Origin: an uncultured delta proteobacterium
GTDB taxonomy: Bacteria; Desulfobacterota; Zymogenia; Zymogenales; Zymogenaceae
Assembly: GCA_963792965.1 (NCBI GenBank)
Contig: CAWBYW010000018.1
Location: forward strand, 91,262-155,261
Length of the DNA: 64,000 nt
Direction: 5' to 3'
Shown: positions 5,378 to 26,329 of the stretch, one piece after another
How positions within the stretch are numbered: the stretch's first letter is position 1
Layout of the letters: each line of letters begins with the position of its first letter
The notes under the pieces: model-generated
The model's input: only the letters and a program-made list of their open reading frames with translations
What the model was told of the DNA's origin: nothing
The model's database searches: none
Program-made: the position numbers and the translations under genes

Positions 5378-5395
5378 TTGGCCTGATACTTGCTT
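5378..5395 (+). promoter_or_regulatory. Putative sigma54 (-24/-12) promoter of the EPS/RiPP operon
   Basis: TTGGCCTGATACTTGCTT has exact GG-N10-GC spacing, in an AT-rich intergenic region just after a sigma54 activator gene. Confidence 0.65.
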
Positions 5396-5621
5396 ATTGT
5401 ATTGATAGGTGGACGGGACGCAATAGAGACAGGCACGCATCGGCTCGGCCACGGTATTAAGAGGAATCGACGCTGAGAAGATGGAGATAAGTTAGCTAAA
5501 AAAGATTGTAAATATACATAAAATGGTATAGATTTATACGCCATTAGTGGAGCAATTGCAACGCCCCACACCTGGTGTATGATGAATATGTTTAAGACAC
5601 TATTCGTTGAAAGGTACACCG

Positions 5622-8157: not shown

Positions 8158-8268
8158 ATGAGGAGTGTTCTCGCGTATCGGCTGTCTCGAACTCGGAAAG
8201 TAGTGCCTATCGGGCTCGAGAGCGGTATAGAGGCGAAAGATTTATTCACTTAAAACGGTAACTCACCC

Positions 8269-10539
8269 ATGCCCCAATATGAGATTCAGCTGAAAGACCT
8301 CATCCGGATCCTCAAGAAACGGAGAAAGATCGTCCTTTTCTCGATGGTCACCCTCGCGGTCCTGAGCGTCATCTTTGCCAAGATCCAGTCCCCCACACAG
8401 TTGTACCAGTCCATTTCAAAGGTACGGTACGACCAGACGCGGTCCCTGGCGGGGATAACCACGCCGATCTACTACTTCTCTCCCTACGACAACATCAATT
8501 CTCAGACGAAGATCATCACAAGCTACCCTGTCCTGGAGATGACCGCCAAGAAGCTCGGCTATTTGAACAAGAATCTGAGATCTCAGGATATCCTCAGTTC
8601 CAAGGAGCATATGTCCGTCGTCTCGGGCCTTGAAGGCCAGATCGGCACGGAGATCGAGGAAAACACGAATATCATCGACATCAAGGTCACCTCGGTCGAT
8701 CCCAAGATGGCCGCCGATATCGCCAACGCGGTGGCCGAAAGCTACCGTGACTACAACCGCGACCAGATTAACAAGCGGACGATAGATACGAAGGACTTCA
8801 TCGAAAAGCAGTTGAGCCTCGTCAGCCAGCGGCTTAAGGAAGCCGAGGAGAATCTGAAGAATTTCCAGCAGAATCGAAATATCGTGGTGCTCGACACCCA
8901 GACCAATAACGACCTTCAGTCGCTGGCGCTCCTCCAGACCGACTACGATAAGCTGGACCGGGAAAACAGCAACCTGCTGGCATTCAAGAACAAGGTTACG
9001 TCAAAGAATGTGAGCGGCAAGGAGCTCTTCCCCATCCTTGAGATGGACGTCAACAGCAACCTCTACACCCTGAATGCCGAGCTGCAAAAGCTCCTCTTGG
9101 AGCGCGACGAGCTCATGACGGTATACACCATCAATCACCCCAAGGTCGCCGACCTGAATGATAAGATCAACAATATCCTCGCCCTGATCGGCTCGGATAT
9201 CAACACGCGGGTCTCTTCCAACAGGGTACGCATGGGGACTCTCAACCACGATATCGACAAGTATAAGGGACGGGCCGCCGAATATCCCGATGATAACCTT
9301 ACGCTGGCCAAATATCAACGGGAGGTGAAGCTACAGAGTGACCTCTACGCCGAGCTTGCCTCGAAGTACCAGGAGATCCTCATCCAGGAGTCCGGAATGG
9401 TTGAGGAGGTGGGTATCGTGGCGCCCGCTCTCGTTTCTGAATTGCCCATCAATCCGCCGAAGATATTCTCCTCGTTCCTCATCGGCCTTCTCCTGGGCCT
9501 CTTCCTCGGCGTCTTCTTTGCAATCATTATGGAGAACCTCGACACCTCCATCGGCGCCATCGAAGACGTGGAGAGCTACCTCGGCATCCCCGTCCTCGGG
9601 GTGATCCCCTACATCGAGCCATACGTTGAGGAACAAAAGGGCGAAGAAAGGATCGAAAGGCCGACCGGAGATAAGCGCAAGGAGTCTCTCCTCGTCATCT
9701 CGATGAGCCCCACGTCGCTCGCGACGGAGGCCTACCGCTCTCTCAGGACGAATATTATCTTCCTGAACCAGGAAAAAGGGATCAAGACCTTCATGATCAC
9801 CAGCTCCTCGCTCCAGGAGGGGAAGACCATCACGTGCATTAACACCGCCATCACGCTGGCCCTCGGCGGATACAGGACCCTTCTGGTGGAAGCGGACCTG
9901 CGCCGTGCCACAATTGCAAAGACCCTCGGAATCGAGCGTTCGCCCGGCCTCTCGGAGGTGATCCTCGGGATTGACTCGGCAAAAGAGGTGACACGGGATA
10001 TTAACGACATCATCCTCGGCGGGCTCGAAATGGACACCCTTATGAAGTCGCCCGAGCTTGCCAACCTCTTCGTCATCACCTCCGGCGCCTTCCCGACAAA
10101 CCCCGCAGAGCTGCTGAGCTCAAAGCAGATGATGAAGTTCATCGAGGAGGCCAAGGCCGAGTACGACTTCATCATCTTTGATAGCACACCGGTGTTGCCT
10201 GTTACGGACGCCGTGTTACTGTCTCAGAAAGTCGATGGCGTGATTATCCTCTACGAGGTGGGGAAGATCGCCCGCGGGGTGCTCAAGAGGACCAAGTCCC
10301 ACCTCGACAACGTGAAGGCCAACGTGCTGGGGGTCATACTCAACAACGTAAGGCCGGAGTATGGGCCCGACTATTACAGCTACCATTACCAGTATTATTA
10401 CGAGGAGGGCAAGCATCCCCGGAAGCTCGGCGAATGGGAAAAGATCAAGGAATATTTCTCGAAGGATAGCCTGAGGCGGTTTGCCTCAGACACCCGAGAG
10501 AAACTCTCGAAGACTTTTCAAAAAAAGGAAATGCGGTAG
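8269..10539 (+). CDS. Wzc/GumC-type polysaccharide co-polymerase with BY-kinase domain
   Basis: Two TMs around a coiled-coil domain, EAYRSLRTNI, Walker A SSLQEGKT, DSTP Walker B, Tyr cluster YGPDYYSYHYQYYY. Confidence 0.9.
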   Translation: MPQYEIQLKDLIRILKKRRKIVLFSMVTLAVLSVIFAKIQSPTQLYQSISKVRYDQTRSLAGITTPIYYFSPYDNINSQTKIITSYPVLEMTAKKLGYLNKNLRSQDILSSKEHMSVVSGLEGQIGTEIEENTNIIDIKVTSVDPKMAADIANAVAESYRDYNRDQINKRTIDTKDFIEKQLSLVSQRLKEAEENLKNFQQNRNIVVLDTQTNNDLQSLALLQTDYDKLDRENSNLLAFKNKVTSKNVSGKELFPILEMDVNSNLYTLNAELQKLLLERDELMTVYTINHPKVADLNDKINNILALIGSDINTRVSSNRVRMGTLNHDIDKYKGRAAEYPDDNLTLAKYQREVKLQSDLYAELASKYQEILIQESGMVEEVGIVAPALVSELPINPPKIFSSFLIGLLLGLFLGVFFAIIMENLDTSIGAIEDVESYLGIPVLGVIPYIEPYVEEQKGEERIERPTGDKRKESLLVISMSPTSLATEAYRSLRTNIIFLNQEKGIKTFMITSSSLQEGKTITCINTAITLALGGYRTLLVEADLRRATIAKTLGIERSPGLSEVILGIDSAKEVTRDINDIILGGLEMDTLMKSPELANLFVITSGAFPTNPAELLSSKQMMKFIEEAKAEYDFIIFDSTPVLPVTDAVLLSQKVDGVIILYEVGKIARGVLKRTKSHLDNVKANVLGVILNNVRPEYGPDYYSYHYQYYYEEGKHPRKLGEWEKIKEYFSKDSLRRFASDTREKLSKTFQKKEMR

Positions 10540-10559
10540 CCCGCAGGAAGGCCGTCATC

Positions 10560-11963
10560 GTGGGAACAGCTCGACATACATCGGAAGGGAATCTGACCAA
10601 TTTCTCCACCTCCATCGCCCTCGGCATCATGGTCATCATGATCTCCGTCCTGGCCTTCTTGATTTCCGGCGGGATGCAGCTCAAGATGGTGGTCATGGTG
10701 GTCGGCATCATCGCCACCGCCATCTGTTTTTTCAACACCGAGATGGCCCTCTACCTCATCCTCTTTGCCATGCTCTTTTCGCCGGAGTTTTCCTTTGGCG
10801 GAGAACTGGCGGAGGGTAGGAAGCTCGTCCTTAGGGTCGAGGATATTATCATCGTCGTCACCTTCTTTTCGTGGGTGGTCAAGACCGTCCTCTACGAAGG
10901 TGTGGGTCTGATCGTCAAGACCCCCCTGAACCGGCCCATTAAGCTCTACGTCTTCGTCTCCTTTCTCTCCACCTTCCTGGGGGCGCTTATCGGCAAGGTG
11001 AACCTCTCCTCCGGGCTCCTCTACGTCTTTAAGTATATGGAGTTTTTCCTGGTCTACTTTATGTTCGCCAACAACATTACGGACCGGGACCAGGTCAAGC
11101 GGTTTATCATTGCGGCCTTTATCGTGGCGATCTTCACGGCGCTCTACGCCGTCGCCCAGATCCCCTTCGGGGGCAGGGTCACCGCTCCCTTTGAGGGCGA
11201 AAGCGGCGAGCCCAACACGCTCGGAGGGTATCTCATCCTGATTATCTCGATAGCCGCCGGACTCTGGTTTGTCATGCGGGATCAGCGGCTGAAAATTGCG
11301 CTGGCCTCGCTCGTGGTCCTTATGACTGTTCCGTTCCTCTTTACCCTCTCGCGTAGCTCGTACGTCGCCGCCATCCCGATGTTTGCGGCCTTTTTCATCT
11401 TCACCAACAAGAAACTGCTGCTCTCCTTTGTCCTGCTCGCCTTTGTGCTGGCGGCGCCCATCCTTCTTCCCGAAAAGATCAAGGAGCGGGTCTCGGAAAC
11501 CTTCGTGCCCGACCCCGGTTTTGCCCAGACCCAGACCATCGGAAACGTCGGGTTTGACACCTCCACGTCGGAACGGATCTCATCGTTTAAGTATTCCATT
11601 GAGAAGTGGCAAAAGCGGCCCATCTTCGGATGGGGCGTTACCGGCGTCGGCATCATCGACAGTACCTATTTCCGCCTCCTGGCCGAGGTAGGCCTCGTGG
11701 GACTGGCCGCCTTTCTATATCTGATCTCCGTCATCGGCCTGCACCTCTACCATATCTTCAAGAAGTCGCAGGATCCGCTCTTGAAAGGGCTTGCCCTCGG
11801 GATGCTCGCCGGGACCGCGGCGCTCCTCGGGCATAGCGTGGGCGCGGCATCCTTCATCATCGTCAGAATCATGGAGCCCTATTGGTTCTTCATGGCCTGT
11901 ATCGTTGCCCTCTACCAGATCGAACAGAGTTATCCGCCCGCTCCACAAAAGGAACTCGCGTGA
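10560..11963 (+). CDS. O-antigen ligase/Wzy-like polymerase
   Basis: Polytopic membrane protein; EPNTLGGYL, FTLSRSS, PIFGWG, AEVGLVG. Confidence 0.8.
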   Translation: MGTARHTSEGNLTNFSTSIALGIMVIMISVLAFLISGGMQLKMVVMVVGIIATAICFFNTEMALYLILFAMLFSPEFSFGGELAEGRKLVLRVEDIIIVVTFFSWVVKTVLYEGVGLIVKTPLNRPIKLYVFVSFLSTFLGALIGKVNLSSGLLYVFKYMEFFLVYFMFANNITDRDQVKRFIIAAFIVAIFTALYAVAQIPFGGRVTAPFEGESGEPNTLGGYLILIISIAAGLWFVMRDQRLKIALASLVVLMTVPFLFTLSRSSYVAAIPMFAAFFIFTNKKLLLSFVLLAFVLAAPILLPEKIKERVSETFVPDPGFAQTQTIGNVGFDTSTSERISSFKYSIEKWQKRPIFGWGVTGVGIIDSTYFRLLAEVGLVGLAAFLYLISVIGLHLYHIFKKSQDPLLKGLALGMLAGTAALLGHSVGAASFIIVRIMEPYWFFMACIVALYQIEQSYPPAPQKELA

Positions 11964-13138
11964 GATTTGGCTATTTTCTCAAGATGCTCCCCTCCCGTAT
12001 GTCGACTTTCATTCACCGGGAGATCGCCTGGCTCCGGTCGCAGGGGCACGAGGTATACCTCTTCCCCGTCTGGGACATCGACCCAAACGACCTCCCCGAG
12101 ACTATAACGGGGTCCCCCGACTATATCATCGCTCGTACTTCGCTCGTATCGTTGGGCTGGGTGCCTGCCCTCGCTCGCTTCTCCCTTACCTCTCCGCTCA
12201 GGGTCGCGCGGATAGTCGCCGGCTACCGCCGTCTCTACGGGATCGCGTTTGTCCTCAAATCGATCGAGGCCGCCCGACTGATTCAAAGAAAGAGGATCGA
12301 GCGTATCTGCGCCCACACCCTTTCACTGGCCGCTTCGCGGGCACGCATCTGTTGGCTCCTGACGGAGATTCCCTACAGCATTACCGTCCACGGCTCGGAT
12401 CTCCTCCTCTTCCCCCCCCGGGACGGCCCGGAATTAATCCGGGATGCACACGTCGTCATCACCCCCACGGAATTTAACAAGAAGCGGCTTCAGGAGATAG
12501 CCGGCCCGTCCGCGAAAGAAAATATCAGGGTAATCCCCTACCCGGTGGATACCGACTTCTTCCGGCCCGAAACAACGAAGCTCGCGCGTATGGGAGAGAT
12601 GCGACTGATCACGGTGGGGAGGCTCCATCCGGTGAAGGGACACCGGTATATCCTCCGGGCCGTCGATACGTTGCGGCGGGAGGGAGTCGCCCTTTCCCTG
12701 AAAATCGTGGGCGAGGGGGAGGAAAGGACCGGGCTCGAGGCCGAAGTGAAAAAGCTGGGCCTCGAGAGCTACGTAGTATTCACCGGCGCCCTCTTCGGCG
12801 CCGAGCTGCGGGACCAGTTGGCCGCGTCGGACATCTTTGTCCTGGCCAGTCACTCCGAGGGCCTCCCGGTATCGATGCTGGAGGCAATGGCGACGGGCCT
12901 CTGCGTAGTGGTTCCCGCCGTGACCGGGATCCCGGAAATGGTGCGCGACGGACAAAACGGCCTCCTCTTTACCCCCCAGGACCCCGTCGATCTGGCCGAG
13001 AAGCTGCGCCATGCCGCTGGCGACGCGGGCCTCAGGCGTCGGCTCGGGAAAGAGGCGCGCACCTCCGTCGTCTCGCGGTGCAGCGGCGATGCGGTCTACC
13101 GAGAGATCCTGCGTGCCGTCGGGGGGGTCAAGGAATGA
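11960..13138 (+). CDS. Glycosyltransferase family 4
   Basis: TVHGSD, VGRLHPVKG, SHSEGLPVSMLEAMA; GTG start overlaps previous TGA. Confidence 0.9.
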   Translation: MRFGYFLKMLPSRMSTFIHREIAWLRSQGHEVYLFPVWDIDPNDLPETITGSPDYIIARTSLVSLGWVPALARFSLTSPLRVARIVAGYRRLYGIAFVLKSIEAARLIQRKRIERICAHTLSLAASRARICWLLTEIPYSITVHGSDLLLFPPRDGPELIRDAHVVITPTEFNKKRLQEIAGPSAKENIRVIPYPVDTDFFRPETTKLARMGEMRLITVGRLHPVKGHRYILRAVDTLRREGVALSLKIVGEGEERTGLEAEVKKLGLESYVVFTGALFGAELRDQLAASDIFVLASHSEGLPVSMLEAMATGLCVVVPAVTGIPEMVRDGQNGLLFTPQDPVDLAEKLRHAAGDAGLRRRLGKEARTSVVSRCSGDAVYREILRAVGGVKE

Positions 13139-14289
13139 CGGTCGCGGATCTCACATTCGCCTCTAACGCGCGCACGATCACGAGCCATGCCGTTCGGGAC
13201 ACGTGGGCCTCGATGATGGGCCAGCCCCCCCACCCGCTCGATATTCCGAGCGGTCCGCTCCCCGCCGACCTTATCCCCTTTTCGGCGGCAAAGGGCTCCC
13301 TCGGGCCCGTGATGCAGGCACTTTCCCGCTGGGGGCTCGCGGGGCGCTTGGAAGAAAGGGAGCGAACGAGGGCCGAGGTCGCGCTCGTCCGCGCGGGGAT
13401 GTCGGTGGCCGCGATGCGGTCGGAGCTCGCCCGGATACTCGGGGCGTGCGCCGCGGAGCAGGTCGATGTGGTTATCCTGAAGGGCCACGATCTCCTCGTC
13501 AGGTACTACGAGAGCGATACCATCCGCCCCGTCACCGACGCCGACCTCCTCATCAGGCGACGTGACTACCCGAAGCTCGGTAGGATACTCACCGACGCCG
13601 GCTATCGCACCCCGGGGGGAGAGAGGACGAGCGTCTGGTCGCGGGGTGGTTTCATCATCGATGTTCATTTCGCCTTCGTCAACGACGTGAGGAACCCGAT
13701 GAGCGCATTCCTGCCGCAGATCCCGGCCGGGGAGATCTTCGCTCGCGCCGAGAAAAGGGAGATCGAAGGCGCCGCATACCTCTCACCCGACCCCGGCCAC
13801 AGCCTCATCATCACCGCGCTCCATGCGATGACCCACTCCTACCTGAAGGACTACTGGTTCTTGGACGCCGGGACGCTCCTGATCAGGAACGCCGAGCCGT
13901 CGTTTGTGGATCGGTGTCGGGCACTCGCGGAAGAACATCGGCTGACCGGTGTGCTGGGCCCCATGCTCTGGGCCCTCCGGGAGCACTTCGCCTTCAGGCC
14001 GGACTCGGGCAGGGGCAAGGAATATCGCGTCTCGCTCCCCGTCCGGCGTCTCATCGGTGCGGCGATGCGAAGCACCGACTACCTCTTCTTCGGCGATCTC
14101 CTGCTCGGATTGTCTGTTGACAGCTACAAAAAAAAGTTCTATTATTTTAAGGAGATGGCCTTCCCCCACCGGGACGTCGTCGCGCGGGAGAGGGGTGTCG
14201 GCATCACAGGGGCGGCCCCCTTATTTCTTTCCCGATCCCTGCACCTGGTGAGGTCAGGATTTCACATCCTCATCAAAGGACGGCGATAA
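13135..14289 (+). CDS. Nucleotidyltransferase family protein (NTP_transf_5-like)
   Basis: VILKGxxL, RPVTDADLLI (DxD), IDVH; ATGA overlap with GT4. Confidence 0.75.
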   Translation: MTVADLTFASNARTITSHAVRDTWASMMGQPPHPLDIPSGPLPADLIPFSAAKGSLGPVMQALSRWGLAGRLEERERTRAEVALVRAGMSVAAMRSELARILGACAAEQVDVVILKGHDLLVRYYESDTIRPVTDADLLIRRRDYPKLGRILTDAGYRTPGGERTSVWSRGGFIIDVHFAFVNDVRNPMSAFLPQIPAGEIFARAEKREIEGAAYLSPDPGHSLIITALHAMTHSYLKDYWFLDAGTLLIRNAEPSFVDRCRALAEEHRLTGVLGPMLWALREHFAFRPDSGRGKEYRVSLPVRRLIGAAMRSTDYLFFGDLLLGLSVDSYKKKFYYFKEMAFPHRDVVARERGVGITGAAPLFLSRSLHLVRSGFHILIKGRR

Positions 14290-14906
14290 TGGCCGTATTC
14301 CTTCGCGCGGCGTCCCGATTTCACACGATCATACGGAATTTCGTAAGGCTCTACCTCCTCTTTAACGAGAAAGAAGTGTGTTCCGTCCGGGATTCGATTG
14401 TCCGCTGCGAATGTGAAGGTGACGAGATGGTACTGTTTGGCCTCGATGACCGTAGGGCGCATCTCCTCAACCATACCGCCGCCCGAGTTCTCGGGCTTAC
14501 CGACGGGAGGAGGTCCGTCGGAGATATCGCCGCGCGTATCGCCTCCGATTTCGGGGAGAAAAAGGGGGTCGTCGGGCGCGACGTGAAAAGGATCTGTCGG
14601 GACCTTTATCTCAAAGGGGTGATCACTATGGCGCACGAACGTTCGTATGTACCGAAGATAAAAAAAGAGACCGTCGTCCGCGAAGAGGACGACGGAGCAT
14701 GTATCTTTGACCCGCTGACCGATGAGCTTTCGGCGATCAACGAGACAGGTAGAATCGTCCTGAAACAGATGAACGGGAAAAACAGTATCGCACAGATCGC
14801 GAAGAAGGTCAGGGCTGTCTTCCCCGACCAGGAAGAGGAGAAGATATACCGGGACGTTGAGGCGTTCATAGATGAGCTGAAGAATCGGGGCTTTCTTACC
14901 GTATGA
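14289..14906 (+). CDS. Tandem PqqD/RRE-domain protein (ScmD-like)
   Basis: Two PqqD-like units: LLNHTAARVLGLTDGRRSVGDIA...DVKRICRDLYLKGVI and REEDDGACIFDP...INETGRIVLKQMNGKNSIAQIA...DVEAFIDELKNRGFL. Confidence 0.82.
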   Translation: MAVFLRAASRFHTIIRNFVRLYLLFNEKEVCSVRDSIVRCECEGDEMVLFGLDDRRAHLLNHTAARVLGLTDGRRSVGDIAARIASDFGEKKGVVGRDVKRICRDLYLKGVITMAHERSYVPKIKKETVVREEDDGACIFDPLTDELSAINETGRIVLKQMNGKNSIAQIAKKVRAVFPDQEEEKIYRDVEAFIDELKNRGFLTV

Positions 14907-14971
14907 TCCGCCTGTCGAGGCCCCAGATAATCAGCTTCTCTTCAAGACGTACGATATAAGGGGAACTCATC

Positions 14972-16267
14972 GTGGTAAACAGATCAGTCCTAAAGAAAGA
15001 AAAGGGAAACACTCCCATCCCCACAAGCATGCTGCGCGCACCGCTGTCCCTCTTTATCTCGATCACCTCGCGCTGCAACCTCTCGTGCCGCCATTGCGCC
15101 GTCTATTCGGACGACCTTACGTATGACCCGGATCTCACCACCTCACAATGGCTCTCCTTCATCGACCAGATCGTCCGTCTCAGGGTCTTCCGCGTCAAGA
15201 TCAGCGGCGGAGAGCCGTTCGCGCGAAAGGACATCTTCGATATCCTCGATCACCTTTTCACGCAGCCGATCCGTGTCTCGATTAATACCAACGCCATGCT
15301 TATCGATGAGGATGCCGCCCGGCATCTCTCGTCGTACGGGCCAAAGCTCTCCGACCTCATGGTGAGCATTGACGGGGGCTCCCCCGAAACCCACGACGCC
15401 CTTCGGGGGCGAGGGGCATTTCGGGAGATGCTGAAGGGGGCTGGGCATCTGGTCGAACACGTGAGAAAACTCACCGCCTATTGCACGGTGACCCGCCTCA
15501 ATTTCAGGGAGCTCGGGGACGTGGCGCGTCTGGCCTCGGAAATCGGGATAAGTGGTCTAAAATTTAACGACCTTATCCCCCTGGGGCGTGGGCTTAAATA
15601 CCGGGATGATCTTGATCTCACGCGGGAGGAGAAACGAGAAACCACTACACGCCTCAAGGCGCTGCAAAAGACGTATCCCTTCATATCGGGGACCCTCTTT
15701 GAGGTAGACGAGATATTCGAGAAGATCGGGTCGACAGCTCCCGAAAAGCTGGCGGAGTCGTCGGAAATGGAACACTGCCTTTCGGGATGCGGCGCGCTCA
15801 ACAACGAATGCGCCATCAGGCCCGACGGATGGGCGACCCCCTGTGACCGCCTCCCGGAGCTCACGGCGGAGAATATCCTTGAGGTGCCGCTCGACGTGAT
15901 CTGGAGGGAGTCGCAGACGTTTACGGAATTCCGCCGGCGTTTTACCACCCCTATCACAAGCCTCAGCACGTGCTCGGATTGTCAGTTTGCCCCGGTTTGC
16001 ACAGGAGGATGCGCCGCGTCGGCCTTTGCGGCGTACGGCACGACGCTTGCGCGCGACCCCTCGTGCTGTTACAGGCTCTACGAGGAGGAGACGGCTGATG
16101 CGCCGCATAAATCGACGCGAATATCCTCTCCGTCGCGCGTACCTCTATGTTTCCGGCGGGTGCAACCTCCGCTGCGCCCATTGCTGGATATCTCCGGCCT
16201 TCGTGGCCGAGGGCCGTGTACAACGAGATCAGCTGACGGCCGCCGACGTAAAGAAGGTCATCGATGA
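14972..16267 (+). CDS. Radical SAM/SPASM protein, ScmE-like
   Basis: CNLSCRHC (CxxxCxxC), SGGEP, VSIDG; SPASM Cys SGCG..TPCD..CSDCQFAPVCTGGC..CC; true end may be near 16098. Confidence 0.88.
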   Translation: MVNRSVLKKEKGNTPIPTSMLRAPLSLFISITSRCNLSCRHCAVYSDDLTYDPDLTTSQWLSFIDQIVRLRVFRVKISGGEPFARKDIFDILDHLFTQPIRVSINTNAMLIDEDAARHLSSYGPKLSDLMVSIDGGSPETHDALRGRGAFREMLKGAGHLVEHVRKLTAYCTVTRLNFRELGDVARLASEIGISGLKFNDLIPLGRGLKYRDDLDLTREEKRETTTRLKALQKTYPFISGTLFEVDEIFEKIGSTAPEKLAESSEMEHCLSGCGALNNECAIRPDGWATPCDRLPELTAENILEVPLDVIWRESQTFTEFRRRFTTPITSLSTCSDCQFAPVCTGGCAASAFAAYGTTLARDPSCCYRLYEEETADAPHKSTRISSPSRVPLCFRRVQPPLRPLLDISGLRGRGPCTTRSADGRRRKEGHR

Positions 16268-17186
16268 GGGCCGTCCGATAGGCCTTCTCAGCGTCAAGCT
16301 CACCGGGGGGGAACCGTTTATCAATGACGAGATATTCGAGATAATTGAGCTGATCGGCGGCCGGGAGATCTCGATGTTTATCGAAACCAACGGGACCCTG
16401 ATCGACCGGGATACCGCGGCCTTCTTGAAAAGACAGGGGATAAACTCCGTCAGCGTGAGCGTCGACAGCAATCGCTCCTCCTTTCATGATGCCTTCCGCG
16501 GGGTGGCGGGGGCGCTGGACGGTGCCGCCTCGGGCGTAGAGCACCTCGTATCCGAGGGTATATCGGTGCAGGTCATCATGAGCCTGGTCAGGGAAAACTC
16601 CCGTGACATCGAAGGTCTTATTGATTTGGCAAAGCGGCTCGGAGCGCATTCGGTGAAGATCAACCCGGTGACCCCGATCGGAAGGGGCGGAGTCCTGTCC
16701 GACCGAGGCGACACGCTGGGGGTCGAGGAACTCCTCGAACTCTCACCGTGGGTGGAGGGGCAGCTCTCGCGTCAGTACGGGATCGAGACCTTCTTCACCG
16801 TTCCGTCCGTCTTTAAGCCGATCGGCCACCTGTTTGACGAAAGGAACGCCCAGTGCCATATCCTGACGATCATCGGCATCCTTGCAAACGGCGATGTTTC
16901 GATTTGCGGCATTGGGAGGGAAGTGCCCGCCCTCGTGATGGGAAATATCCGTACGGATAACCTGGAACAGATCTGGCGGGAAAGCTCCATCCTCGGTGAT
17001 CTCAGACAGATCGTGCCGAATAACTTGGAGGGAATCTGCGGTCGGTGCATCATGAAGGGGATATGCATGGGGTCGTGCCGGGCGGACGCCTATGTCCTTT
17101 CGGGGAGCCTTGCGGCGCCTCACTGGATCTGCCGGGAGGCGCTCGATAAAGGACTCTTCCCGAAAAATAGACTGTTAAGCCAATGA
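16098..17186 (+). CDS. Radical SAM/SPASM protein, ScmF-like
   Basis: GAGGAGG RBS before ATG 16098; GCNLRCAHCWISP, KLTGGEP, SICGIG, EGICGRCIMKGICMGSC, APHWICREALDKGLFP resemble SynChlorMet ScmF as I recall it. Confidence 0.88.
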   Translation: MRRINRREYPLRRAYLYVSGGCNLRCAHCWISPAFVAEGRVQRDQLTAADVKKVIDEGRPIGLLSVKLTGGEPFINDEIFEIIELIGGREISMFIETNGTLIDRDTAAFLKRQGINSVSVSVDSNRSSFHDAFRGVAGALDGAASGVEHLVSEGISVQVIMSLVRENSRDIEGLIDLAKRLGAHSVKINPVTPIGRGGVLSDRGDTLGVEELLELSPWVEGQLSRQYGIETFFTVPSVFKPIGHLFDERNAQCHILTIIGILANGDVSICGIGREVPALVMGNIRTDNLEQIWRESSILGDLRQIVPNNLEGICGRCIMKGICMGSCRADAYVLSGSLAAPHWICREALDKGLFPKNRLLSQ

Positions 17187-18139
17187 TTGCGAGGATCGGA
17201 GGCATATCGATCAAGCTTTCCGTCCCTGGGGACCGGGCGTCGTCCGAAAGGATTCTGGAAGAGGTCAACGGCAGACTATCCGGCTTCACCGCTAAAAGGG
17301 GACGGCATAACCTCATGCTTACGATCAGGCCGGTGGACGATCTCCCCTGGGAGGAGATACTTTGCAAAGAAGACCTCATACGGGCGCGCCGAATCGTGGA
17401 TGTCCTGAGAAGGAGGTTCCCTCTTACGAGGATACCGTTTGAGAATATGCATACGAGCAATCCATCGCACATAAAGGGAAGAATTTCCTCCGACCTCCTC
17501 TCCCGCTTCTGCAGGGGAGGTGTTTCGGTCATCCCGCAGGGCGGTTTCCTCCTGGCCGTTGACCACCGAAGCGGATACGGAGAGGTCTTCGTTAAGCGGC
17601 GCGAAGAGGGAGGCCTCGTCCCCTCGTTCATGAGCGCCCTGCAGGGCGCCCTCGGTCTGTGCGCCTCGTACCATGACGCCCTCATGCTCCACGCGAGCTC
17701 CCTTGCGATTGACGGGAGGGGATTTGTCTTTATCGGCGCATCGGGGGCCGGCAAAACTACAATAGCCTCGTCGGTCGCCCCGGAGGCGGTGCTCTCAGAC
17801 GATGGGTCCTGGTGTTCGCGGATGGGCGGTAGATTTTACCTGTATCGAACGCCCTTTTCCCAGATAGACACTGGGCCCCCTCTCGCAGACCGGACTCCTC
17901 TTGACCGGCTCCTCTTTCTCGGGAAGAGCGAGCACAACTATATCGCCGGCCTCTCGCCGGGCCGGGCCATGACAATGCTGCTTCTCAATCACATCCACTT
18001 CTTCCGATATATGGACCGGGAGGGAGCATTTAAGGCCTTCGGCCTTGTGGAGGAGCTATGCCGGAAGAACCGGGCCTTCACCCTCTTTTTTAATCGGAGT
18101 TTTAATCCGATGTCATTTTTCAGGGGAATAATCGAATGA
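17183..18139 (+). CDS. HPr-kinase-like P-loop protein (ScmC-like)
   Basis: LHAS...GASGAGKTT...LSDD signature of HprK-related proteins; TPF downstream. Confidence 0.72.
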   Translation: MIARIGGISIKLSVPGDRASSERILEEVNGRLSGFTAKRGRHNLMLTIRPVDDLPWEEILCKEDLIRARRIVDVLRRRFPLTRIPFENMHTSNPSHIKGRISSDLLSRFCRGGVSVIPQGGFLLAVDHRSGYGEVFVKRREEGGLVPSFMSALQGALGLCASYHDALMLHASSLAIDGRGFVFIGASGAGKTTIASSVAPEAVLSDDGSWCSRMGGRFYLYRTPFSQIDTGPPLADRTPLDRLLFLGKSEHNYIAGLSPGRAMTMLLLNHIHFFRYMDREGAFKAFGLVEELCRKNRAFTLFFNRSFNPMSFFRGIIE

Positions 18140-18357
18140 AAGAAAAAAAGACGTATGAGCCGCCGATGGTCATAGATCTTCAGGTCGACTATACCCAGGC
18201 GGTGGGACAGTCACGCTGCAACGCCGGGCCCACAGCCACCGGGCAGTGCACCACCGGGCCGCAGGCGAACCGCACATGTGGCACGGGCACCCAATTTACG
18301 CCGTTCTGCGGAAACGGCCAAACCGCCAACGGCTGCAACACCGGTAAGACTCCGTAG
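18136..18357 (+). CDS. Candidate RiPP precursor peptide with five CxxG repeats
   Basis: ATGA overlap with upstream gene; leader KKTYEPPMVIDL (YxxP); Cys at residues 28, 38, 48, 58, 67, each as CxxG. Confidence 0.82.
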   Translation: MKEKKTYEPPMVIDLQVDYTQAVGQSRCNAGPTATGQCTTGPQANRTCGTGTQFTPFCGNGQTANGCNTGKTP

Positions 18358-18395
18358 CGGCAGCTGTTCCGACCGACTTCAAAGGAGCAGGAGCG

Positions 18396-18839
18396 GTGAG
18401 GCAGTTTAGACGAATCCGATTCCGTGGATACAGCATGTACCCGGCGCTGCGCCCGGGCGACACGCTGATCCTTCGCCCAGTGTTGAGCGGCGAGTGTGCC
18501 AGGGGTGATATCGTCTGCGTCCCCGGCGAACGCAATTTCACCACCCACCGCGTCGTCGAGATCAATCGGAGCTCGGCCGGTCCCATGCTCATCACCAAGG
18601 GAGACAACCTCCCCTACTTCGATTCGCCCATCGTCCTCCCCTCGGAAGGGATTCATCGGGTCGCCATGATCTGCCGCCCGGGACGGGGACCCACCAGACC
18701 CCGTTTCGGGAGGACACGTGCCCTCCTCTCCCGAAATAACCTGACGGTAGGTATCATACAGGGGAGGATCGGGCGCCTCATAAGGGGCACGTATGGACGT
18801 GTTCGGAATTTACTTAATAGGAAACCCAACCGCACATGA
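18396..18839 (+). CDS. S24/S26-family signal-peptidase-like protein
   Basis: GYSMYPALRPGD (catalytic Ser), THRVV (His), ITKGDN; no N-terminal TM. Confidence 0.8.
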   Translation: MRQFRRIRFRGYSMYPALRPGDTLILRPVLSGECARGDIVCVPGERNFTTHRVVEINRSSAGPMLITKGDNLPYFDSPIVLPSEGIHRVAMICRPGRGPTRPRFGRTRALLSRNNLTVGIIQGRIGRLIRGTYGRVRNLLNRKPNRT

Positions 18840-20419
18840 ACCGGATCGATAAATCCCTCTTCCGCGTCTGCCAGGTGACCCTGGCAAACCTCCTGAAAAC
18901 TACGGCCGCAAGGTTCAGGGATCGGGAGGCGATCTCTTGTTCTGTAACGGGCCGACGCTTCTCGTTTCGAGAGGTAAACGAGCGGATGAATCGGCTCGCC
19001 AATGCCCTCCTCTCGTTGGGGGTCAAGAAAGGAGATCATTGCGCGTTTCTCTGCCGCAACCGGGCCGAGACGGGAGAGATCTACGGCGCCCTCATCAAAA
19101 TCGGGGCGATCGCCGTACCGCTGCACTGGAGCCTTGAGATTGAAGAGATCATCGACTACCTCACGTTTACCCAGGCCCGGCATTTCCTGTTTGAGGATTT
19201 CTATACCGAGGCCGCTATCGTGATCAAAAAGCGCCTCAGGCGCATCAAGACGTTCGTCTGCATCGGGAAACAGGAGACCGACTTTGCCCTCCCCTACGAG
19301 GAGCTGATCAGCGGATCGTCCCCCGTTCTTCCCTTCATCGACGTGAATGCCGACGACGTCCAGGGCATCGATACAACCTCCCGGACGACCGGTGTCCATA
19401 AGGTCTATCCCCTCACCCACGCAAACGGCCTGAGCGCCGTCATGTTCTTCACGTCGATCCACGAGTTGACGAAAGATGACGTCATCCTGACCCTCTTCCC
19501 CCTCTACGGGCGCGTGGGCCTTGCCTGGTATGGTGCGGGATTTTTGACCGGGGCCCGCAACGTCCTGTTTCAACCGGACATGACCGATCCATCCGGCATT
19601 TTGCGGATCATACAGGACGAGCGCATCACCATAACCAACTGGACCCCGATTGTCGCGTCTATCCTCCTCACGCTCCCGGATCTGGATCGATACGACCTCT
19701 CGTCCCTCAGAGCGATCTCTTTTTCGGCAAGCCGCTTTCCCGTCGACCTGCAAAAGGAGGTGAGGGATCGCATCTGCCCCGACATCTACGAATATTACGC
19801 CATGCAGGAGGCCGGCATCATTGCCCACATGGGGCCCGAGGACAAGCGGAAAAATCCCGCCTCCGTGGGAACCCTCTGCTTCGGGACCGACGTGCGCATC
19901 GTGGACGAGGCCGGGAAAGATGTGGCCACCGGCGAAATCGGCCAAATCATCTGCAGGGCCCTCTCCGCCGCACCAGGGTATTTCAGGAATGACGCGCAGA
20001 CGCGATCGGCTTTCAGGGACGGCTGGTTTTACACCGACGACTGGGGGCGGTTTGATGAAGACCAGTTCTTCTATTTCTTAGGCAGGAGGGAGGACATGAT
20101 CGTGACGGGGGATACGACGGTCTTCGCGGCGGGTATCGAAGAGGTCCTTACCGCCCACGAGGGGGTCCTGGACGCCGCGGTCATCGGGCTGCCGGATGAT
20201 ACGCTCGGTGAGGCCGTGACGGCGGTGATAGTGAGAAACCCGAAGGGAGACGTGACGAGAGAGGCGCTGACCGTCTGGTGTCGGGAGAGGCTTACCCCGC
20301 ACCAGGTGCCCCGGCGGATCATCTTTTCCGCGATGCTCCCCCGCAACGCCGTCGGCAAGGTAACCAAGTATGTGCTGGTCGAGAGGTTCTCCCGTGAGGG
20401 CGCTCACACCGACGGATAG
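18836..20419 (+). CDS. ANL-superfamily AMP-binding (acyl-CoA synthetase-like) protein with degenerate motifs
   Basis: Overall fold signature and C-terminal LPRNAVGK; P-loop reads TTSRTTGVHK, plus YAMQE and YTDDWG. Confidence 0.8.
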   Translation: MNRIDKSLFRVCQVTLANLLKTTAARFRDREAISCSVTGRRFSFREVNERMNRLANALLSLGVKKGDHCAFLCRNRAETGEIYGALIKIGAIAVPLHWSLEIEEIIDYLTFTQARHFLFEDFYTEAAIVIKKRLRRIKTFVCIGKQETDFALPYEELISGSSPVLPFIDVNADDVQGIDTTSRTTGVHKVYPLTHANGLSAVMFFTSIHELTKDDVILTLFPLYGRVGLAWYGAGFLTGARNVLFQPDMTDPSGILRIIQDERITITNWTPIVASILLTLPDLDRYDLSSLRAISFSASRFPVDLQKEVRDRICPDIYEYYAMQEAGIIAHMGPEDKRKNPASVGTLCFGTDVRIVDEAGKDVATGEIGQIICRALSAAPGYFRNDAQTRSAFRDGWFYTDDWGRFDEDQFFYFLGRREDMIVTGDTTVFAAGIEEVLTAHEGVLDAAVIGLPDDTLGEAVTAVIVRNPKGDVTREALTVWCRERLTPHQVPRRIIFSAMLPRNAVGKVTKYVLVERFSREGAHTDG

Positions 20420-21463: not shown

Positions 21464-22720
21464 TTGCCCGTGATACCGGTAAATGATCAGAAAGCCGTGA
21501 GGACCAACAATCAGCTGTCCATCCTCAACGCGTTGAAGGGTGCCGGCCCCATGTCGCGCAGGCGTCTCCAGGGCGCGACGGGCCTCAGTTGGGGGACGAT
21601 AACCTATCTGGTGAACGAGCTGATCGATCTTCAGATCGTCCGGGAAGTTGGAATGCTTGCCACGGGCGTCGGCAGGCCGCCGGTCGATCTGGATCTGAAC
21701 ACGGAGGCCAACTTCGTCATCGGAATCTGGATGGGAGACCGGCACGTGGATGCGTTGATGCTCGACATAAAGGGCCGCGCGGTGCGCGAGCTCTCTCTCC
21801 CCCTGGATCCATCGGCCCATTCAGAAGCCATCGTCCGGCGTCTCTTTGGAGTGGTCGATACCCTGATCGAGCAGGGCTCTGTTGGGTGCTCGTCGATCGC
21901 CGGGATCGGGTGCGCCGTGCCGGGCTCATATAACCCGGCGACGGGCGTCTGTGCGTATGCACCTAACCACCCGCACTGGCGCGATGTACCGCTCTTGAGC
22001 CTCTTCACGGAGCGATATCACAGGCCCGTCTTCATTGACCACGACATGAATTGCTGCGTGCTGGGCGAGCATTTCTTCGGCGACACCGGGCGCTTTTCCA
22101 ACTTCGTCTGTGTGAATATCGAGGGGGGCATTGGGGCGGGCATCATGATAAACGGCGAGGTCTACCGGGGCGCTGACAACTCCGCCGGCGAATTGGGTCA
22201 CATCCTTGTGGCAGACAACGGCCCGCGCTGCAGTTGCGGGAGATACGGGTGCCTGGAGTCCGTCGCATCTGACCGGGCACTTCTGGCGGGGGCCCGCCTG
22301 ACGGCGGCCGGCCGCAAGCGGGACGCTTTCTCCGCAAACCATGCCGGCGACCGCGACATGGGCCTCGAAACAGTCATCGAGGCGGCTCGGCTCGGTGATA
22401 AGGAAGTCCTTTCCCTGTTTGAGGAGATGGGGCACTACCTCGGTATCGGTATCGGTATCCTGATAACGCTCTTTAACCCCGAAAAGGTTATCCTGAGCGG
22501 CGGTATCTTCAGGGCACGGGATTTTCTGCAGACATCAATGAACGCGTCGCTGGGTAAGACGGCGTGGCCCTATGCCCGCGCGGATGTGGGCTTCACCGTT
22601 CTTAAGAACGGCATCGTGCTGGGCGCCGCGGGAATGGTGCTGCAGGAGATTTTCAAGAACGCCCTCCTCCTGCCAGGACAGGCCGTCCGGGGCATCGCCG
22701 CCCGTGGAGACGAGAGGTGA
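21464..22720 (+). CDS. ROK-family transcriptional repressor
   Basis: N-terminal wHTH, GVGRPP, GIGAGI, AGELGH, CSCGRYGCLE. Confidence 0.9.
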   Translation: MPVIPVNDQKAVRTNNQLSILNALKGAGPMSRRRLQGATGLSWGTITYLVNELIDLQIVREVGMLATGVGRPPVDLDLNTEANFVIGIWMGDRHVDALMLDIKGRAVRELSLPLDPSAHSEAIVRRLFGVVDTLIEQGSVGCSSIAGIGCAVPGSYNPATGVCAYAPNHPHWRDVPLLSLFTERYHRPVFIDHDMNCCVLGEHFFGDTGRFSNFVCVNIEGGIGAGIMINGEVYRGADNSAGELGHILVADNGPRCSCGRYGCLESVASDRALLAGARLTAAGRKRDAFSANHAGDRDMGLETVIEAARLGDKEVLSLFEEMGHYLGIGIGILITLFNPEKVILSGGIFRARDFLQTSMNASLGKTAWPYARADVGFTVLKNGIVLGAAGMVLQEIFKNALLLPGQAVRGIAARGDER

Positions 22721-23829
22721 AACACAGGTCCACGCATGTCGCGGCGACCGATATACGCACGCGGACGATACGACACCTGCGGGACGATCAGAAGAGGTAT
22801 CATCTTCTCTTGGGCTTTGACGGGTTCGTCGACGATGTCTGCCACGTGATGGAGGCCCGTGACGACCAAAACGTACTCAGGAGAATTACCACCATCACCG
22901 AACTGGGCCGGAAAGTCGCCGGCGCCGCGGGCCTGAGCTGCGCGCTGGAACTCGTGTCCCGGGGAATCCGCCCGGGGGGCAACGCCGTGAACATGGGAAA
23001 GGCAACGGTCGAGTTCGGAAACGACCTGTCGCTGATCGCGACCCTCGGGCAAGATGCAATTCATCCGGTCTTTCGTGAGCTCACCGACGCCTGCAGAAAC
23101 GTTATCTCGCTGGGGGAGCCGGGATATACCGAGGCCCTCGAATTTCTCGACGGTAAGGTCATGCTCAACAGGATGGGAGGACTTCAGGCGCTCACCTGGG
23201 ACGTCGTCTCCGCACATATTCACCCCCAGGAGCTGCAGCGTCTCGTCTCAACGGCATCGCTTGTCGGGCTCCTGGATTGGTCGATCTTCCCTGCCATGGA
23301 TGAGATCGTAGGTCGATTCCTCGGTATGATCCGTGAGATGAAAGAGAGACCCGTTCTTTTTTTCGACCTCTCCGATCTGAGGCGCAGAGCGACGCAAGAC
23401 ATCGTCGGCATCATGGATATCGTCGGTGAGTGTGGCAGGTCCGCCCCCGCCATTCTGAGCCTCAACGAGTCCGAATCGATGATCGCGGCCGACGCGCTTT
23501 CGATAGGCGCGCGCGACGACACCCGGCGCGCCGGGGCGCTGCGCGACCGTCTCGGGATAGACGCCGTAGTCGTTCATCCCCGGCAAGGCGCCGCCGTGGC
23601 AACAAAAGAGGGCCTCGTCTGGATAGACGGCCCCTACAGCGCGCACCCGGCGGTCTCGACGGGAGGCGGCGATAACTTCAACGCGGGGTTCTGCAACGGC
23701 TGGCTGTTGGAGATGGGGCCCGAGGAGTGCGCCGCACTGGGCGCCTTCACCTCGGGGTACTACGTCAGGCACGGGAAGGCCCCCGGCAAAAAGGAATTAA
23801 TCGAATTTATGGAAACATACGATAATTAG
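22717..23829 (+). CDS. PfkB-family carbohydrate kinase
   Basis: PGGN, SLNESE, STGGGDNFNAGF. Confidence 0.82.
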   Translation: MKHRSTHVAATDIRTRTIRHLRDDQKRYHLLLGFDGFVDDVCHVMEARDDQNVLRRITTITELGRKVAGAAGLSCALELVSRGIRPGGNAVNMGKATVEFGNDLSLIATLGQDAIHPVFRELTDACRNVISLGEPGYTEALEFLDGKVMLNRMGGLQALTWDVVSAHIHPQELQRLVSTASLVGLLDWSIFPAMDEIVGRFLGMIREMKERPVLFFDLSDLRRRATQDIVGIMDIVGECGRSAPAILSLNESESMIAADALSIGARDDTRRAGALRDRLGIDAVVVHPRQGAAVATKEGLVWIDGPYSAHPAVSTGGGDNFNAGFCNGWLLEMGPEECAALGAFTSGYYVRHGKAPGKKELIEFMETYDN

Positions 23830-23869
23830 ACAGTCACACCCCGTCCGGGAGAAGAATCGGAGGAACGCT

Positions 23870-24727
23870 ATGCTCACGCTCTCTCATGTGCTCCACAAGA
23901 TCAACGAACAGCCGGCGACGGCGCTGCCCGCCTTCACGGTCACCGACCTGACGGACATGCACGCCGTGCTTGCCGCCTCTCAGAATAAAAACACGCCGCT
24001 CCTCATGTTGACCGGCGACTACGAGATCAATAACTTCGGCATGGACTTCCTTCGCAAGATGACGGCGGCCGCTCGTATCAGCTATTCCATCCCGGTTTTT
24101 CTCGCGCTTGACCACGGCCTGGACTTTGACATTGCCGTGCGCTGTGTCGCCGCAGGCTATTCCCTCGTCATGTTCGACGGTTCAAGGCTCCCCCTTGCGG
24201 AGAACGTCAGGCAGACCAGGGAAATCGTCCGTGTCGCCCATGCCGCGGGCGTTCTCGTGGAGGGGGAGATCGGCCGCATCCTGGGGCAGGAAGGAAGCAC
24301 CGTCTCGGCCCGCCGGCAGCAATACGCCGACCCTGAAGAGGCCGACTTTTTCTACCGGGAGACGGGGGTCGATCTGTTGGCGGTTTCGTTCGGCACGGCC
24401 CACGGGCTGGGGGGCGGCGAAATCAGGCTGGATTACGATATCGTCCGAGAGGTCCGCACAAGGACCGGGGCGCCCGTCGTCATGCACGGGGGAAGCGGCG
24501 TGCCCGCCGATCAGGTAAGAGAAGCGGTACGCTCCGGCATCAAGAAGGTCAATTTCAGCAGCGATCTTCGGGCCGCCTATACCGCCACAGTGCGCGAATA
24601 TTGCGTGAAAAACCCATCGGAAATAGACCATATGAAGATATTCGTGGACGCGCGGAGGTCGGTTCAAAGGGTGGCGGAAGAAAAGATTTCGCTGGTCAAC
24701 GCGCCGACTCTGGACACGCTCATATAG
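23870..24727 (+). CDS. Class II ketose-bisphosphate aldolase
   Basis: LDHG, VMFDGS, VEGEIG, FGTAHG, VMHGGSG, KVN. Confidence 0.88.
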   Translation: MLTLSHVLHKINEQPATALPAFTVTDLTDMHAVLAASQNKNTPLLMLTGDYEINNFGMDFLRKMTAAARISYSIPVFLALDHGLDFDIAVRCVAAGYSLVMFDGSRLPLAENVRQTREIVRVAHAAGVLVEGEIGRILGQEGSTVSARRQQYADPEEADFFYRETGVDLLAVSFGTAHGLGGGEIRLDYDIVREVRTRTGAPVVMHGGSGVPADQVREAVRSGIKKVNFSSDLRAAYTATVREYCVKNPSEIDHMKIFVDARRSVQRVAEEKISLVNAPTLDTLI

Positions 24728-24823
24728 GAGCGACGCCGCCACGCTTTGCGCGCAACGATCGGTGATGGTGCCTCGTGTGCATGAGGGCCGTCGTTCATTA
24801 ACAATCTCTTTGGGACAACGCTC

Positions 24824-26302: not shown

Positions 26303-26329
26303 CAGGGACTATCATTAACGGAGGGCACA

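Follow-up and report, generated by a model that had tools for sequence, protein, structure and literature searches.

The subject of this work is a biosynthetic cassette found in a 64,000-nucleotide stretch of contig CAWBYW010000018.1 (positions 91,262 to 155,261 of the forward strand; the whole stretch is called here the window). The contig belongs to a metagenome-assembled genome of an uncultured bacterium from the Ca. Zymogenaceae (3.36 Mb in 42 contigs, 88.85% complete, 3.98% contaminated). Eight open reading frames (ORFs), all on the + strand, occupy positions 13135–20419 and likely represent a self-contained biosynthetic operon for a ribosomally synthesised peptide that is modified after translation (RiPP); this operon belongs to a branch sister to the SynChlorMet (Scm) cassette that databases define.

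The first cassette gene (13135–14289) encodes a nucleotidyltransferase-fold protein of the NTP_transf_5 family (PF14907, 100.8 bits at a cut-off of 31.2). It is followed by the gene for a fused double PqqD protein (14289–14906), a tandem of RiPP recognition elements (RRE) scored by PF05402 at 35.6 and 49.6 bits (cut-off 23.4), and by the genes for two radical S-adenosylmethionine (SAM) enzymes, each with Radical_SAM and SPASM domains: the ScmE-like enzyme 1 (14972–16267) and the ScmF-like enzyme 2 (16098–17186). Next come a ScmC-like P-loop protein with an HprK/PEPCK fold, a putative peptide kinase (17183–18139; HprK-related kinase A matches it weakly, E 8.2e-5), and a precursor peptide of 73 aa with a “YEPP” leader and five C-x-x-G-x-x-[A/P] repeats (18136–18357). 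An anchorless S26-type (Ser/His) peptidase, the putative leader peptidase (18396–18839), and an AMP-forming (ANL) ligase (18836–20419; AMP-binding PF00501 at 207.3 bits and AMP-binding_C PF13193 at 61.7 bits) complete the set. No Pfam family matched the HprK-like protein, the peptide or the S26-like protein.

The first-pass annotation, made from the sequence alone, had named these eight genes and six stop/start overlaps, and all of them proved exact: GTGA at 11960, ATGA at 13135, 17183, 18136 and 18836, and TAATG, where the NTP_transf_5 and double PqqD genes share 1 nt, at 14289. A further overlap, of 170 nt (16098–16267), joins the two radical SAM genes; the ATG of enzyme 2 at 16098 is preceded by GGAGGAG. 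The nearest genus has the same overlap (L019, L020 and L024; here and below L-numbers denote fetched loci and G-numbers genomes, L076 being G085:C66 and L070 being G216:C28), and L021 does not have it. The public gene call of enzyme 2 in the window genome covers 270 aa, or 75% of our query, and starts too late.

The same gene order recurs in eight other Ca. Zymogenaceae loci, which makes the cassette more than a chance grouping, and the cassette was present in all nine family genomes searched with the HprK-like protein. Hydrophobic stretches typical of a membrane anchor are absent from all eight products, which look soluble. None of the eight matched an ABC (ATP-binding cassette) transporter family in the Pfam and NCBIfam scans, in agreement with the first reading of the locus.

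Relation to the SynChlorMet cassette

The Scm cassette is represented in the NCBIfam/TIGRFAM library by five models defined in silico: TIGR04248 (ScmD), TIGR04249 (ScmC), TIGR04250 (ScmE), TIGR04251 (ScmF) and TIGR04252 (ScmA). Its architecture, namely a PqqD protein, two PqqE-like radical SAM/SPASM genes and a ScmC-type protein in one cassette, is reproduced in the window. The search with these models, proposed in the first-pass annotation, gave ScmE and ScmF as the best matches of the two enzymes, while every cut-off was missed. ScmF scored 358.8 bits with enzyme 2 (cut-off 400; 447–605 for true members of the phylum), ScmE scored 214.7 bits with enzyme 1 (cut-off 400; 553–604 for true ScmE; the best NCBIfam match of this enzyme), and ScmD scored 48.7 bits with the C-terminal PqqD domain (cut-off 100; 134.2 for true ScmD). 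ScmC (cut-off 125 bits) found nothing at E <= 10 in the whole genome, and ScmA gave 16.5 bits with the 73-aa peptide (cut-off 35).

Among 401 genomes of the phylum the ScmF-model scores are bimodal: 14 genomes reach 447–605 bits, and a second group at 290–374 bits holds the window and eight of the nine genomes of its family. For the tree, we used 30 ScmF-like high-scoring segment pairs (those under 300 aa were dropped) and three ScmE-type rows; L064, represented by its ScmE-type neighbour, was placed with the outgroup. The true ScmF clade (14 rows) was recovered with a support of 100/100 and the family-f1 clade (9 rows) with 98/99, and the ScmF-like group comprising both clades was split from the ScmE-type rows at 100/99. 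The sister position of the family-f1 clade to true ScmF is weakly supported (83/64). Since every Scm equivalog cut-off was missed and the window ScmF-like protein falls outside the clade of above-cut-off ScmF, the window cassette is best regarded as a divergent sister branch of Scm rather than as its member.

We compared the window with 13 fetched loci outside the family, seven with the true Scm cassette (containing ScmD, ScmE, ScmF and ScmC) and six from the sister group. The first-pass list of Scm parts would make extras of the S26-like peptidase, the nucleotidyltransferase and the HprK-like protein, a view that does not hold: six of the seven true Scm loci examined carry ScmC together with S26-like and NTP_transf_5-like genes, and ScmC itself is HprK-like. 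An hhalign comparison of the window HprK-like protein and five relatives with five true ScmC proteins gave a probability of 97.8% (E 1.1e-12, 189 columns), the ScmC model matched, below its cut-off, 47 of 60 close relatives of the HprK-like protein collected in a search of 1.84 billion proteins, and the HprK-related model in turn has a marginal match to the L067 ScmC. The window HprK-like protein is thus a remote ScmC homologue. Because six of the seven true loci carry the three genes and ScmC is HprK-like, these genes belong to the wider Scm gene set.

Two gene fusions were seen in the comparison loci: S26-like and ScmC sequences are joined in one ORF of 528 aa at L068:8337–9923, and S26-like and NTP_transf_5 sequences in one ORF of 515 aa at L073:8196–9743 (PF14907, 155.8 bits). 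With these fusions among the evidence, the kinase-like protein can be counted in the core Scm set, and so can the nucleotidyltransferase and the anchorless S26 peptidase.

Proteins 66–72% identical to the ScmF-like enzyme bear the label “ScmF” at JGI and “radical SAM protein” at NCBI. The ScmF-like enzyme has 795 protein matches at E <= 1e-40 and the HprK-like protein has 2,421 representatives at E <= 1e-10, which makes Scm a large superfamily; most of its carriers are uncultured anaerobes, and a search for reports on its product found none. The literature search, in which supplementary tables were not covered, found no paper on the Scm cassette or its product. The description of the locus as a SynChlorMet-like RiPP cassette that looks complete stands, Scm being its nearest named relative. 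The Scm-type cassette is catalogued in NCBIfam; new here are the family-specific fused double PqqD, the AMP-forming ligase and the lack of an exporter.

The precursor peptide and its processing enzymes

The 73-aa peptide contains five Cys residues with spacings of 10, 10, 10 and 9. It is encoded by a single-copy gene in its genome, and some relatives have two. Small ORFs beside the HprK-like or ScmC gene in 13 loci, including the true Scm loci L066, L070 and L071, follow one common layout. The 19 aligned peptides from these loci have Y7, P10, G31, C38 and G41 invariant, a leader of the pattern K-x-YEPP-x-x-IDL...Y-x-QA-x-G-x-[S/T] and a core of C-x-x-G-x-x-[A/P]-x3 units, five in the window and two to eight over the whole set. 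Gly stands at +3 after 105 of 106 Cys residues and Ala (57) or Pro (27) at +6; the Cys spacing across the family is mostly 10–11 residues, and the chain ends 6–7 residues past the last Cys in 16 of the 19 peptides. A search for further loci with the HprK-like alignment and a single peptide pattern returned four, all already present in the genome search.

This precursor rule (a YEPP leader and C-x-x-G-x-x-[A/P] every 10–11 residues) fits also the true Scm loci on which the curated ScmA model fails: the model misses these peptides, finding nothing, in five genomes with true ScmC–F. Too narrow to decide membership, as these five genomes show, the ScmA model was dropped as a test; its match inside the window cassette is moreover at noise level (E 0.029), and a better one lies elsewhere in the genome. 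The existence of this precursor model in the library corrects the first-pass statement that no precursor had been identified for Scm.

The G002 precursor (L019:11257–11460) keeps the leader and has a core without Cys repeats, which suggests a frameshift or decay. In G007 (L025), where no precursor was found, the wza, wzc, HD and HprK-like genes are each split, which looks like assembly indel errors. A gene similar to the peptide prenyltransferases of the LynF/TruF/PatF type (80.7 bits, cut-off 140) is located at L073:11486–12355; together with an ABC exporter it stands between two Scm-like cassettes, on a contig with three or four candidate precursors.

The set of domains is the one expected for an RRE-dependent radical SAM RiPP system: PF05402, PF04055 and PF13186 all score above their cut-offs, and a small precursor with a leader and a core is adjacent. 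The enzyme 1 translation shows CxxxCxxC and a Cys-rich C-terminus. Its second-best NCBIfam match is the mycofactocin maturase (153.7 bits, cut-off 265). The StsB, AlbA and PapB models give matches in the cassette at 63–104 bits, far under their cut-offs. Enzyme 1 extends about 57 residues beyond the end of the ScmE model, with an Arg/Pro-rich tail.

One can suppose that no peptide is made at all: the small ORF would be spurious, and the radical SAM enzymes would modify a sugar or a cofactor for the adjacent exopolysaccharide (EPS) operon. The position behind glycosyltransferase genes and the heme and heme d1 families among the lower-ranking radical SAM matches speak for this, while two PqqD peptide-binding domains are encoded, the best matches are peptide-maturase families, the leader/core layout of the translationally coupled small ORF is conserved in 19 peptides from 13 loci, and the cassette occurs without EPS genes in three genomes. 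We consider this explanation very improbable and close to refuted; the enzymes did not fall into cofactor- or sugar-modifying families, the outcome that the first-pass annotation had named as fatal to a peptide pathway.

The two PqqD domains may have separate tasks. Two separate PqqD genes are found in L073, L074 and the sister genera, and one ScmD was seen in the true Scm loci. In L076 both radical SAM genes are preceded by a PqqD gene of their own: the N-terminal half of the window protein is matched by the PqqD gene upstream of the ScmE-like gene, and the C-terminal half by that upstream of the ScmF-like gene. We suppose that the leader is brought to each of the two radical SAM enzymes by one of the PqqD domains. 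Complex prediction for the double PqqD protein and the precursor gave a best score of 0.22 against a mark of 0.32, and bears neither way.

By analogy with related families, the Cys-repeat peptide is very probably turned into a cross-linked, decorated product. The two radical SAM enzymes would make one cross-link per Cys unit, most likely a thioether, and the invariant Gly at +3 or the Ala/Pro at +6 may serve as an acceptor or as a turn.

The S26-like protein is matched best by the model for the archaeal/SipW type of S26 peptidases (TIGR02228, 46.0 bits, just under the cut-off of 51.85). G11, S13, M14, P16, H51, R52, G69 and D70 are invariant in 9/9 sequences, the catalytic Ser13 and His51 among them. 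Its highest 19-residue hydropathy is 1.08, which indicates the absence of a membrane anchor. Since the Ser box and the H-R box are kept in all nine and the protein begins at the Ser box, it can be assigned to the soluble Ser/His peptidases; without an anchor, it would cut the leader in the cytoplasm. The end of the leader, A-[VLM]-G-x-[ST] directly before the first Cys, has small residues at −3 and −1, which is consistent with S26-type cleavage, and the peptidase may thus cleave the chain between G-x-[S/T] and the first Cys.

The ligase is matched best in NCBIfam by long-chain-fatty-acid--CoA ligase (331.9 bits, cut-off 476). In the window and in five of the eight other family loci (L020–L024; not in L019, L025 and L026) its gene comes after that for the S26-like peptidase, and it was found in 0/13 loci outside the family; the ligase thus appears to be a family-specific addition, which may acylate or activate the product. 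Its phosphate-binding loop (19388–19414, residues 185–193) reads T-S-R-T-T-G-V-H-K. In ANL enzymes the third residue of this loop is usually Gly and the eighth Pro.

The exopolysaccharide operon and the fate of the product

The EPS operon (5607–13138, + strand) consists, according to Pfam/NCBIfam matches, of a PEP-CTERM-type ATPase-like gene, an HD-domain gene, wza (Poly_export), wzc (GNVR/AAA_31), a gene for a Wzy_C protein and a gene for a family-4 glycosyltransferase (GT4), all upstream of the cassette. The 4-nt overlaps at 11960 and 13135 couple wzy, GT4 and NTP_transf_5 in a row. Each family genome has a single Poly_export match, and the cassette, in the window's genus and those nearest to it, is joined to the 3' end of the only Wza–Wzc EPS operon, with which it is probably co-transcribed. 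The promoter and terminator scan, which gave consensus matches only, showed no terminator-like site between GT4 and the cassette. The sequencing-run search listed no RNA run; three DNA runs from one study contain 5–8% of the words.

Several sites of possible regulation were noted. A sigma-70-like site with 11/12 consensus positions (14117–14145) falls within the 3' end of the gene for the nucleotidyltransferase and, as a consensus match only, could be an internal promoter upstream of the PqqD gene. The strict sigma-54 pattern found nothing upstream of the EPS operon. In a looser scan, TGGCCT-N5-TTGCT at 5379–5394 agrees in 8 of 10 positions with the sigma-54 −24/−12 consensus; 228 nt separate it from the ATPase-like gene downstream, and a PAS/sigma-54 activator gene (3502–5019) just precedes it. 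A similar site stands 198 nt before the ATPase-like gene in L081, and none was seen in L079 or L080. Farther downstream, two identical TGGCACAAATATGGC elements on the − strand (42368–42382 and 46176–46190, about 3.8 kb apart) are each one mismatch from the sigma-54 pattern. The region directly downstream of the cassette (21464–28204) is a sugar-use cluster with a ROK regulator/kinase, a prokaryotic ketohexokinase, a class II aldolase, a fucose-isomerase-like protein and a GH5 glycosidase.

The EPS operon does not qualify as an XrtA/PEP-CTERM locus: the corresponding ATPase, export, kinase and ligase models are the best matches, all below cut-off, and the exosortase PF09721 has no match in the 88.85%-complete genome.

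The first reading placed the cassette inside the EPS operon. This is true only for the window's genus and those closest to it: in the window, G002, G005, G007 and G009 the cassette comes after AAA22-HD-wza-wzc-wzy(-GT4) in the same direction, and in G001 the two lie on opposite strands, with a spacer of about 520 bp between the first EPS gene and the start of the cassette. It is not true for G003, G004 and G006, in which the cassette, ligase included, stands among housekeeping genes (an ADP-forming CoA ligase-type protein, trigger factor, citrate synthase) and the EPS operon with the same gene order is on another contig; in L080 and L081 the same operon stands alone. By the identities of four EPS proteins, G001 is closer to the window than G003, G004 and G006 are, and with this ranking one joining event and an inversion would suffice for the arrangements in the family. 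The ScmF-like tree, in contrast, groups G001 with G004 and G006 (96/93).

The neighbourhood of the ScmF homologues, suggested at the first pass as a test of the EPS link, shows the same limit outside the family. In 0 of 28 outside genomes was a Wza gene present within 60 kb on the ScmF-like contig, where many contigs are short, two genomes lack any Wza match and the nearest case is at 66 kb (G122). Searched by tblastn in the 13 fetched loci outside the family, window wza, wzc and wzy found nothing, and window GT4 found a neighbour in one (L070). The tblastn search with window GT4 replaced a census of GT1 (PF00534) genes around ScmF-like genes, in which 150 of 656 matches were listed; at 7–41 GT1 genes per genome among the matches listed, we roughly estimate that one locus in 13 is about the chance expectation. 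Since three family genomes have the cassette without EPS genes and none of the 28 outside genomes has it near Wza, the junction appears to be specific to the lineage of the window's genus and its nearest relatives and not a property of the system. One family thus offers a natural comparison, in which the same cassette is found apart from one and the same EPS operon, in divergent orientation to it, or fused with it.

Envelope-type genes were also seen beside cassettes of other families. The true Scm locus L070 (2664–7416) has GT4, WecG/TagA-type and family-4 genes that point the same way as NTP_transf_5 and lead into it, with a 4-nt overlap of the ORF coordinates; the family-4 gene is of the polyprenyl-phosphate sugar-phosphate transferase type. 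At L076 (3261–8436) an HD-domain gene lies between the ScmF-like and HprK-like genes, and beside the cassette are a PEP-CTERM-type ATPase-like gene, 57% identical to window 5607–6449, and a low-molecular-weight phosphotyrosine phosphatase gene. At L066 (7239–7997) the gene directly upstream of ScmD encodes a protein whose PEP-CTERM sorting domain scores 24.2 bits (cut-off 16).

A product tied to the polysaccharide, as the first-pass annotation proposed, is hence a minority possibility. A glycosylated peptide might be built on the polymer, cap it or prime it, or the product might leave the cell via Wza/Wzc; the fusion with the EPS operon would then reflect this function. The 4-nt overlaps that join wzy, GT4 and NTP_transf_5 favour such a tie, as do the co-directional arrangement in five genomes and the divergent one in G001, which, being divergent yet adjacent, indicates that the adjacency survived a rearrangement. 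It agrees also with the envelope-type genes at L076, L070 and L066, with the absence of an exporter from the family and with the addition of a hexose in a lasso system by a partner presumably of the PF14907 type. The housekeeping context in G003, G004 and G006, the 28 outside genomes, the chance-level GT4 neighbour and the soluble look of all eight products speak against the tie, and we hold it to be improbable. Still less probable is a special form of it, in which the peptide is, in the window's lineage, a cell-envelope building block on which the EPS is made or by which it is capped, with exit via Wza/Wzc: the ScmC-like protein would phosphorylate the peptide, the PF14907 protein would add the first sugar, and GT4 and the Wzy_C-family protein would extend or ligate the chain. 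This would account for the lack of an exporter, and also for the ATPase and HD genes of EPS type in the cassette of an unrelated genome.

The product may instead be a secreted peptide of an ordinary kind, antimicrobial or signalling, comparable to sactipeptides and ranthipeptides; its EPS neighbourhood would then be accidental and its transporter encoded elsewhere. A Cys-repeat core, an RRE and SPASM radical SAM enzymes are hallmarks of these peptides, and an ABC exporter stands beside 6 of the 13 outside loci (L067, L068, L070, L073, L075 and L078). In the annotated family loci, for their part, genes for an exporter, for immunity or for a regulator are found neither within the cassette nor next to it, and the peptidase lacks a membrane anchor. 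Such a peptide is possible, if rather unlikely, and it is easier to accept than a tie to the EPS.

The lack of an exporter and the soluble products would suit an intracellular molecule as well, i.e., a peptide-derived cofactor or a metal- or redox-binding compound like mycofactocin or PQQ, for which the ligase and the kinase/nucleotidyltransferase pair build a handle. The mycofactocin maturase is the second-best match of enzyme 1, and the presence of the cassette in 9/9 family genomes fits a housekeeping role better than a strain-variable antibiotic. The variable number of Cys units and the loci with two precursors are unusual for a cofactor precursor, related cassettes often have exporters, and no partner oxidoreductase is linked; we consider a cofactor hardly probable.

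Predicted decoration of the peptide and comparison with known systems

The HprK-related kinase models (TIGR04352, TIGR04355 and HPr(Ser) kinase; cut-off 200) score the ScmC-like protein below threshold, at 21.8 and 15.4 bits. Its AlphaFold2 (AF2) model (pLDDT 94) is similar over the whole length to ATP-dependent phosphoenolpyruvate carboxykinase (PEPCK; Z 13.4, root-mean-square deviation 4.3, 239 aa), and residues 164–318 are similar to four HprK/P structures (Z 9.2–9.5, 117–123 aa); Foldseek agrees (E 9.2e-8 and 7.6e-5). H170, G185, G190, K191 and D206 are invariant in 60 HprK-like sequences, with the Walker A motif G-x-S-G-x-G-K-[ST]-T and the following D-D kept. The model thus points to a P-loop fold of the HprK/PEPCK type.

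In the NTP_transf_5 protein K116, G117, D135, D137, H178, H230 and D244 are invariant in 14 homologues. A sequence search against solved structures gave nothing below E 0.34, and the AF2 model (pLDDT 87.5) has as its best PDB neighbours MenT1 (Z 13.6, 170 aa) and, at rank 2, ANT(2'') 4xje (Z 12.4, 158 aa). The score above the PF14907 gathering threshold, the metal-binding D-x-D and the modelled nucleotidyltransferase fold support its membership in PF14907.

According to the literature, an HPr-kinase homologue of lasso clusters phosphorylates the C-terminal Ser of the precursor (PMC8498205), and PsmN, an “uncharacterised NTP transferase”, is required for the attachment of one or two hexoses to this phosphate; its D134A/D136A mutant is dead, and its modelled structural neighbour is PDB 4xje (PMC6993621). 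Because the same types of enzymes act in this way on lasso peptides, as described there, we suppose that the HprK-like protein phosphorylates the peptide and that the PF14907 protein adds a sugar or a nucleotide to that phosphate.

Several points weigh against our view of the cassette as a self-contained Scm-related RiPP operon with such a product. All five Scm models were missed, ScmE reaching 214.7 of 400 bits and ScmC giving nothing at E 10, and enzyme 1 is on a long branch (1.87) outside true ScmE. PEPCK is the best whole-length match of the kinase-like protein (Z 13.4) and HprK/P covers residues 164–318 only; since the whole model fits PEPCK best, a phosphotransfer other than peptide phosphorylation is possible. 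Lasso kinases use a C-terminal Ser, and window-type peptides mostly end in Pro, with no conserved terminal Ser. PsmN is only presumably a member of PF14907. Each modification step is deduced from family resemblance. The cassette has no exporter, while an ABC exporter occurs at 6 of the 13 related outside loci. Finally, the tight GT4 coupling, the adjacency that G001 keeps in divergent form and the ATPase and HD genes of EPS type in the G085 cassette argue for more than an accidental neighbourhood.

The Scm-related RiPP operon remains the reading we prefer, and it may be compared with several known systems. With Scm the window cassette shares PqqD, two paralogous radical SAM/SPASM enzymes, a HprK-like ScmC-type protein and a Cys-repeat precursor with a YEPP-type leader; it differs in the duplicated and fused PqqD, the added ANL ligase, the lack of an ABC exporter and, in part of the window's family, the junction with the EPS operon. 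The maturases of sactipeptides and ranthipeptides (AlbA, StsB, PapB) likewise combine an RRE and a SPASM radical SAM enzyme with a Cys-rich core, whereas the window has two enzymes per peptide and a strict ten-residue C-x-x-G-x-x-[A/P] repeat, for which cross-links are predicted only.

Mycofactocin (MftA–F) is similar in its RRE, SPASM enzyme, soluble peptidase and sugar decoration (predicted here). Its product is intracellular, and MftC is the second-best match of enzyme 1 (153.7 bits). This score is under the MftC cut-off of 265; the window core, unlike that of mycofactocin, is repeated and of variable length, and no MftD, MftE or MftF homologues were seen in the window cassette. The S26-like peptidase resembles the maturation protease of nickel superoxide dismutase (TIGR02754; E 0.0052, 17.2 bits), which is also a small soluble S26 domain starting from the catalytic Ser box, but it scores below the cut-off of 63.25, its Ser/His pair is of the archaeal/SipW type (best match TIGR02228) and its substrate is different.

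For the decoration step, the closest parallel is offered by the lasso peptides (paeninodin, pseudomycoidin), whose clusters also have the kinase and NTP transferase types beside a PqqD-type RRE. The invariant D135-x-D137 of the window protein and its 4xje neighbour at rank 2 correspond to D134/D136 and the 4xje neighbour reported for PsmN. Unlike the lasso clusters, the window has neither a lasso cyclase nor a B2 protease, its core enzymes are radical SAM/SPASM proteins, and its type of substrate has no conserved C-terminal Ser. If the window peptide is phospho-glycosylated, the HprK and PF14907 pair would represent a general module of peptide decoration extending beyond the lasso peptides.

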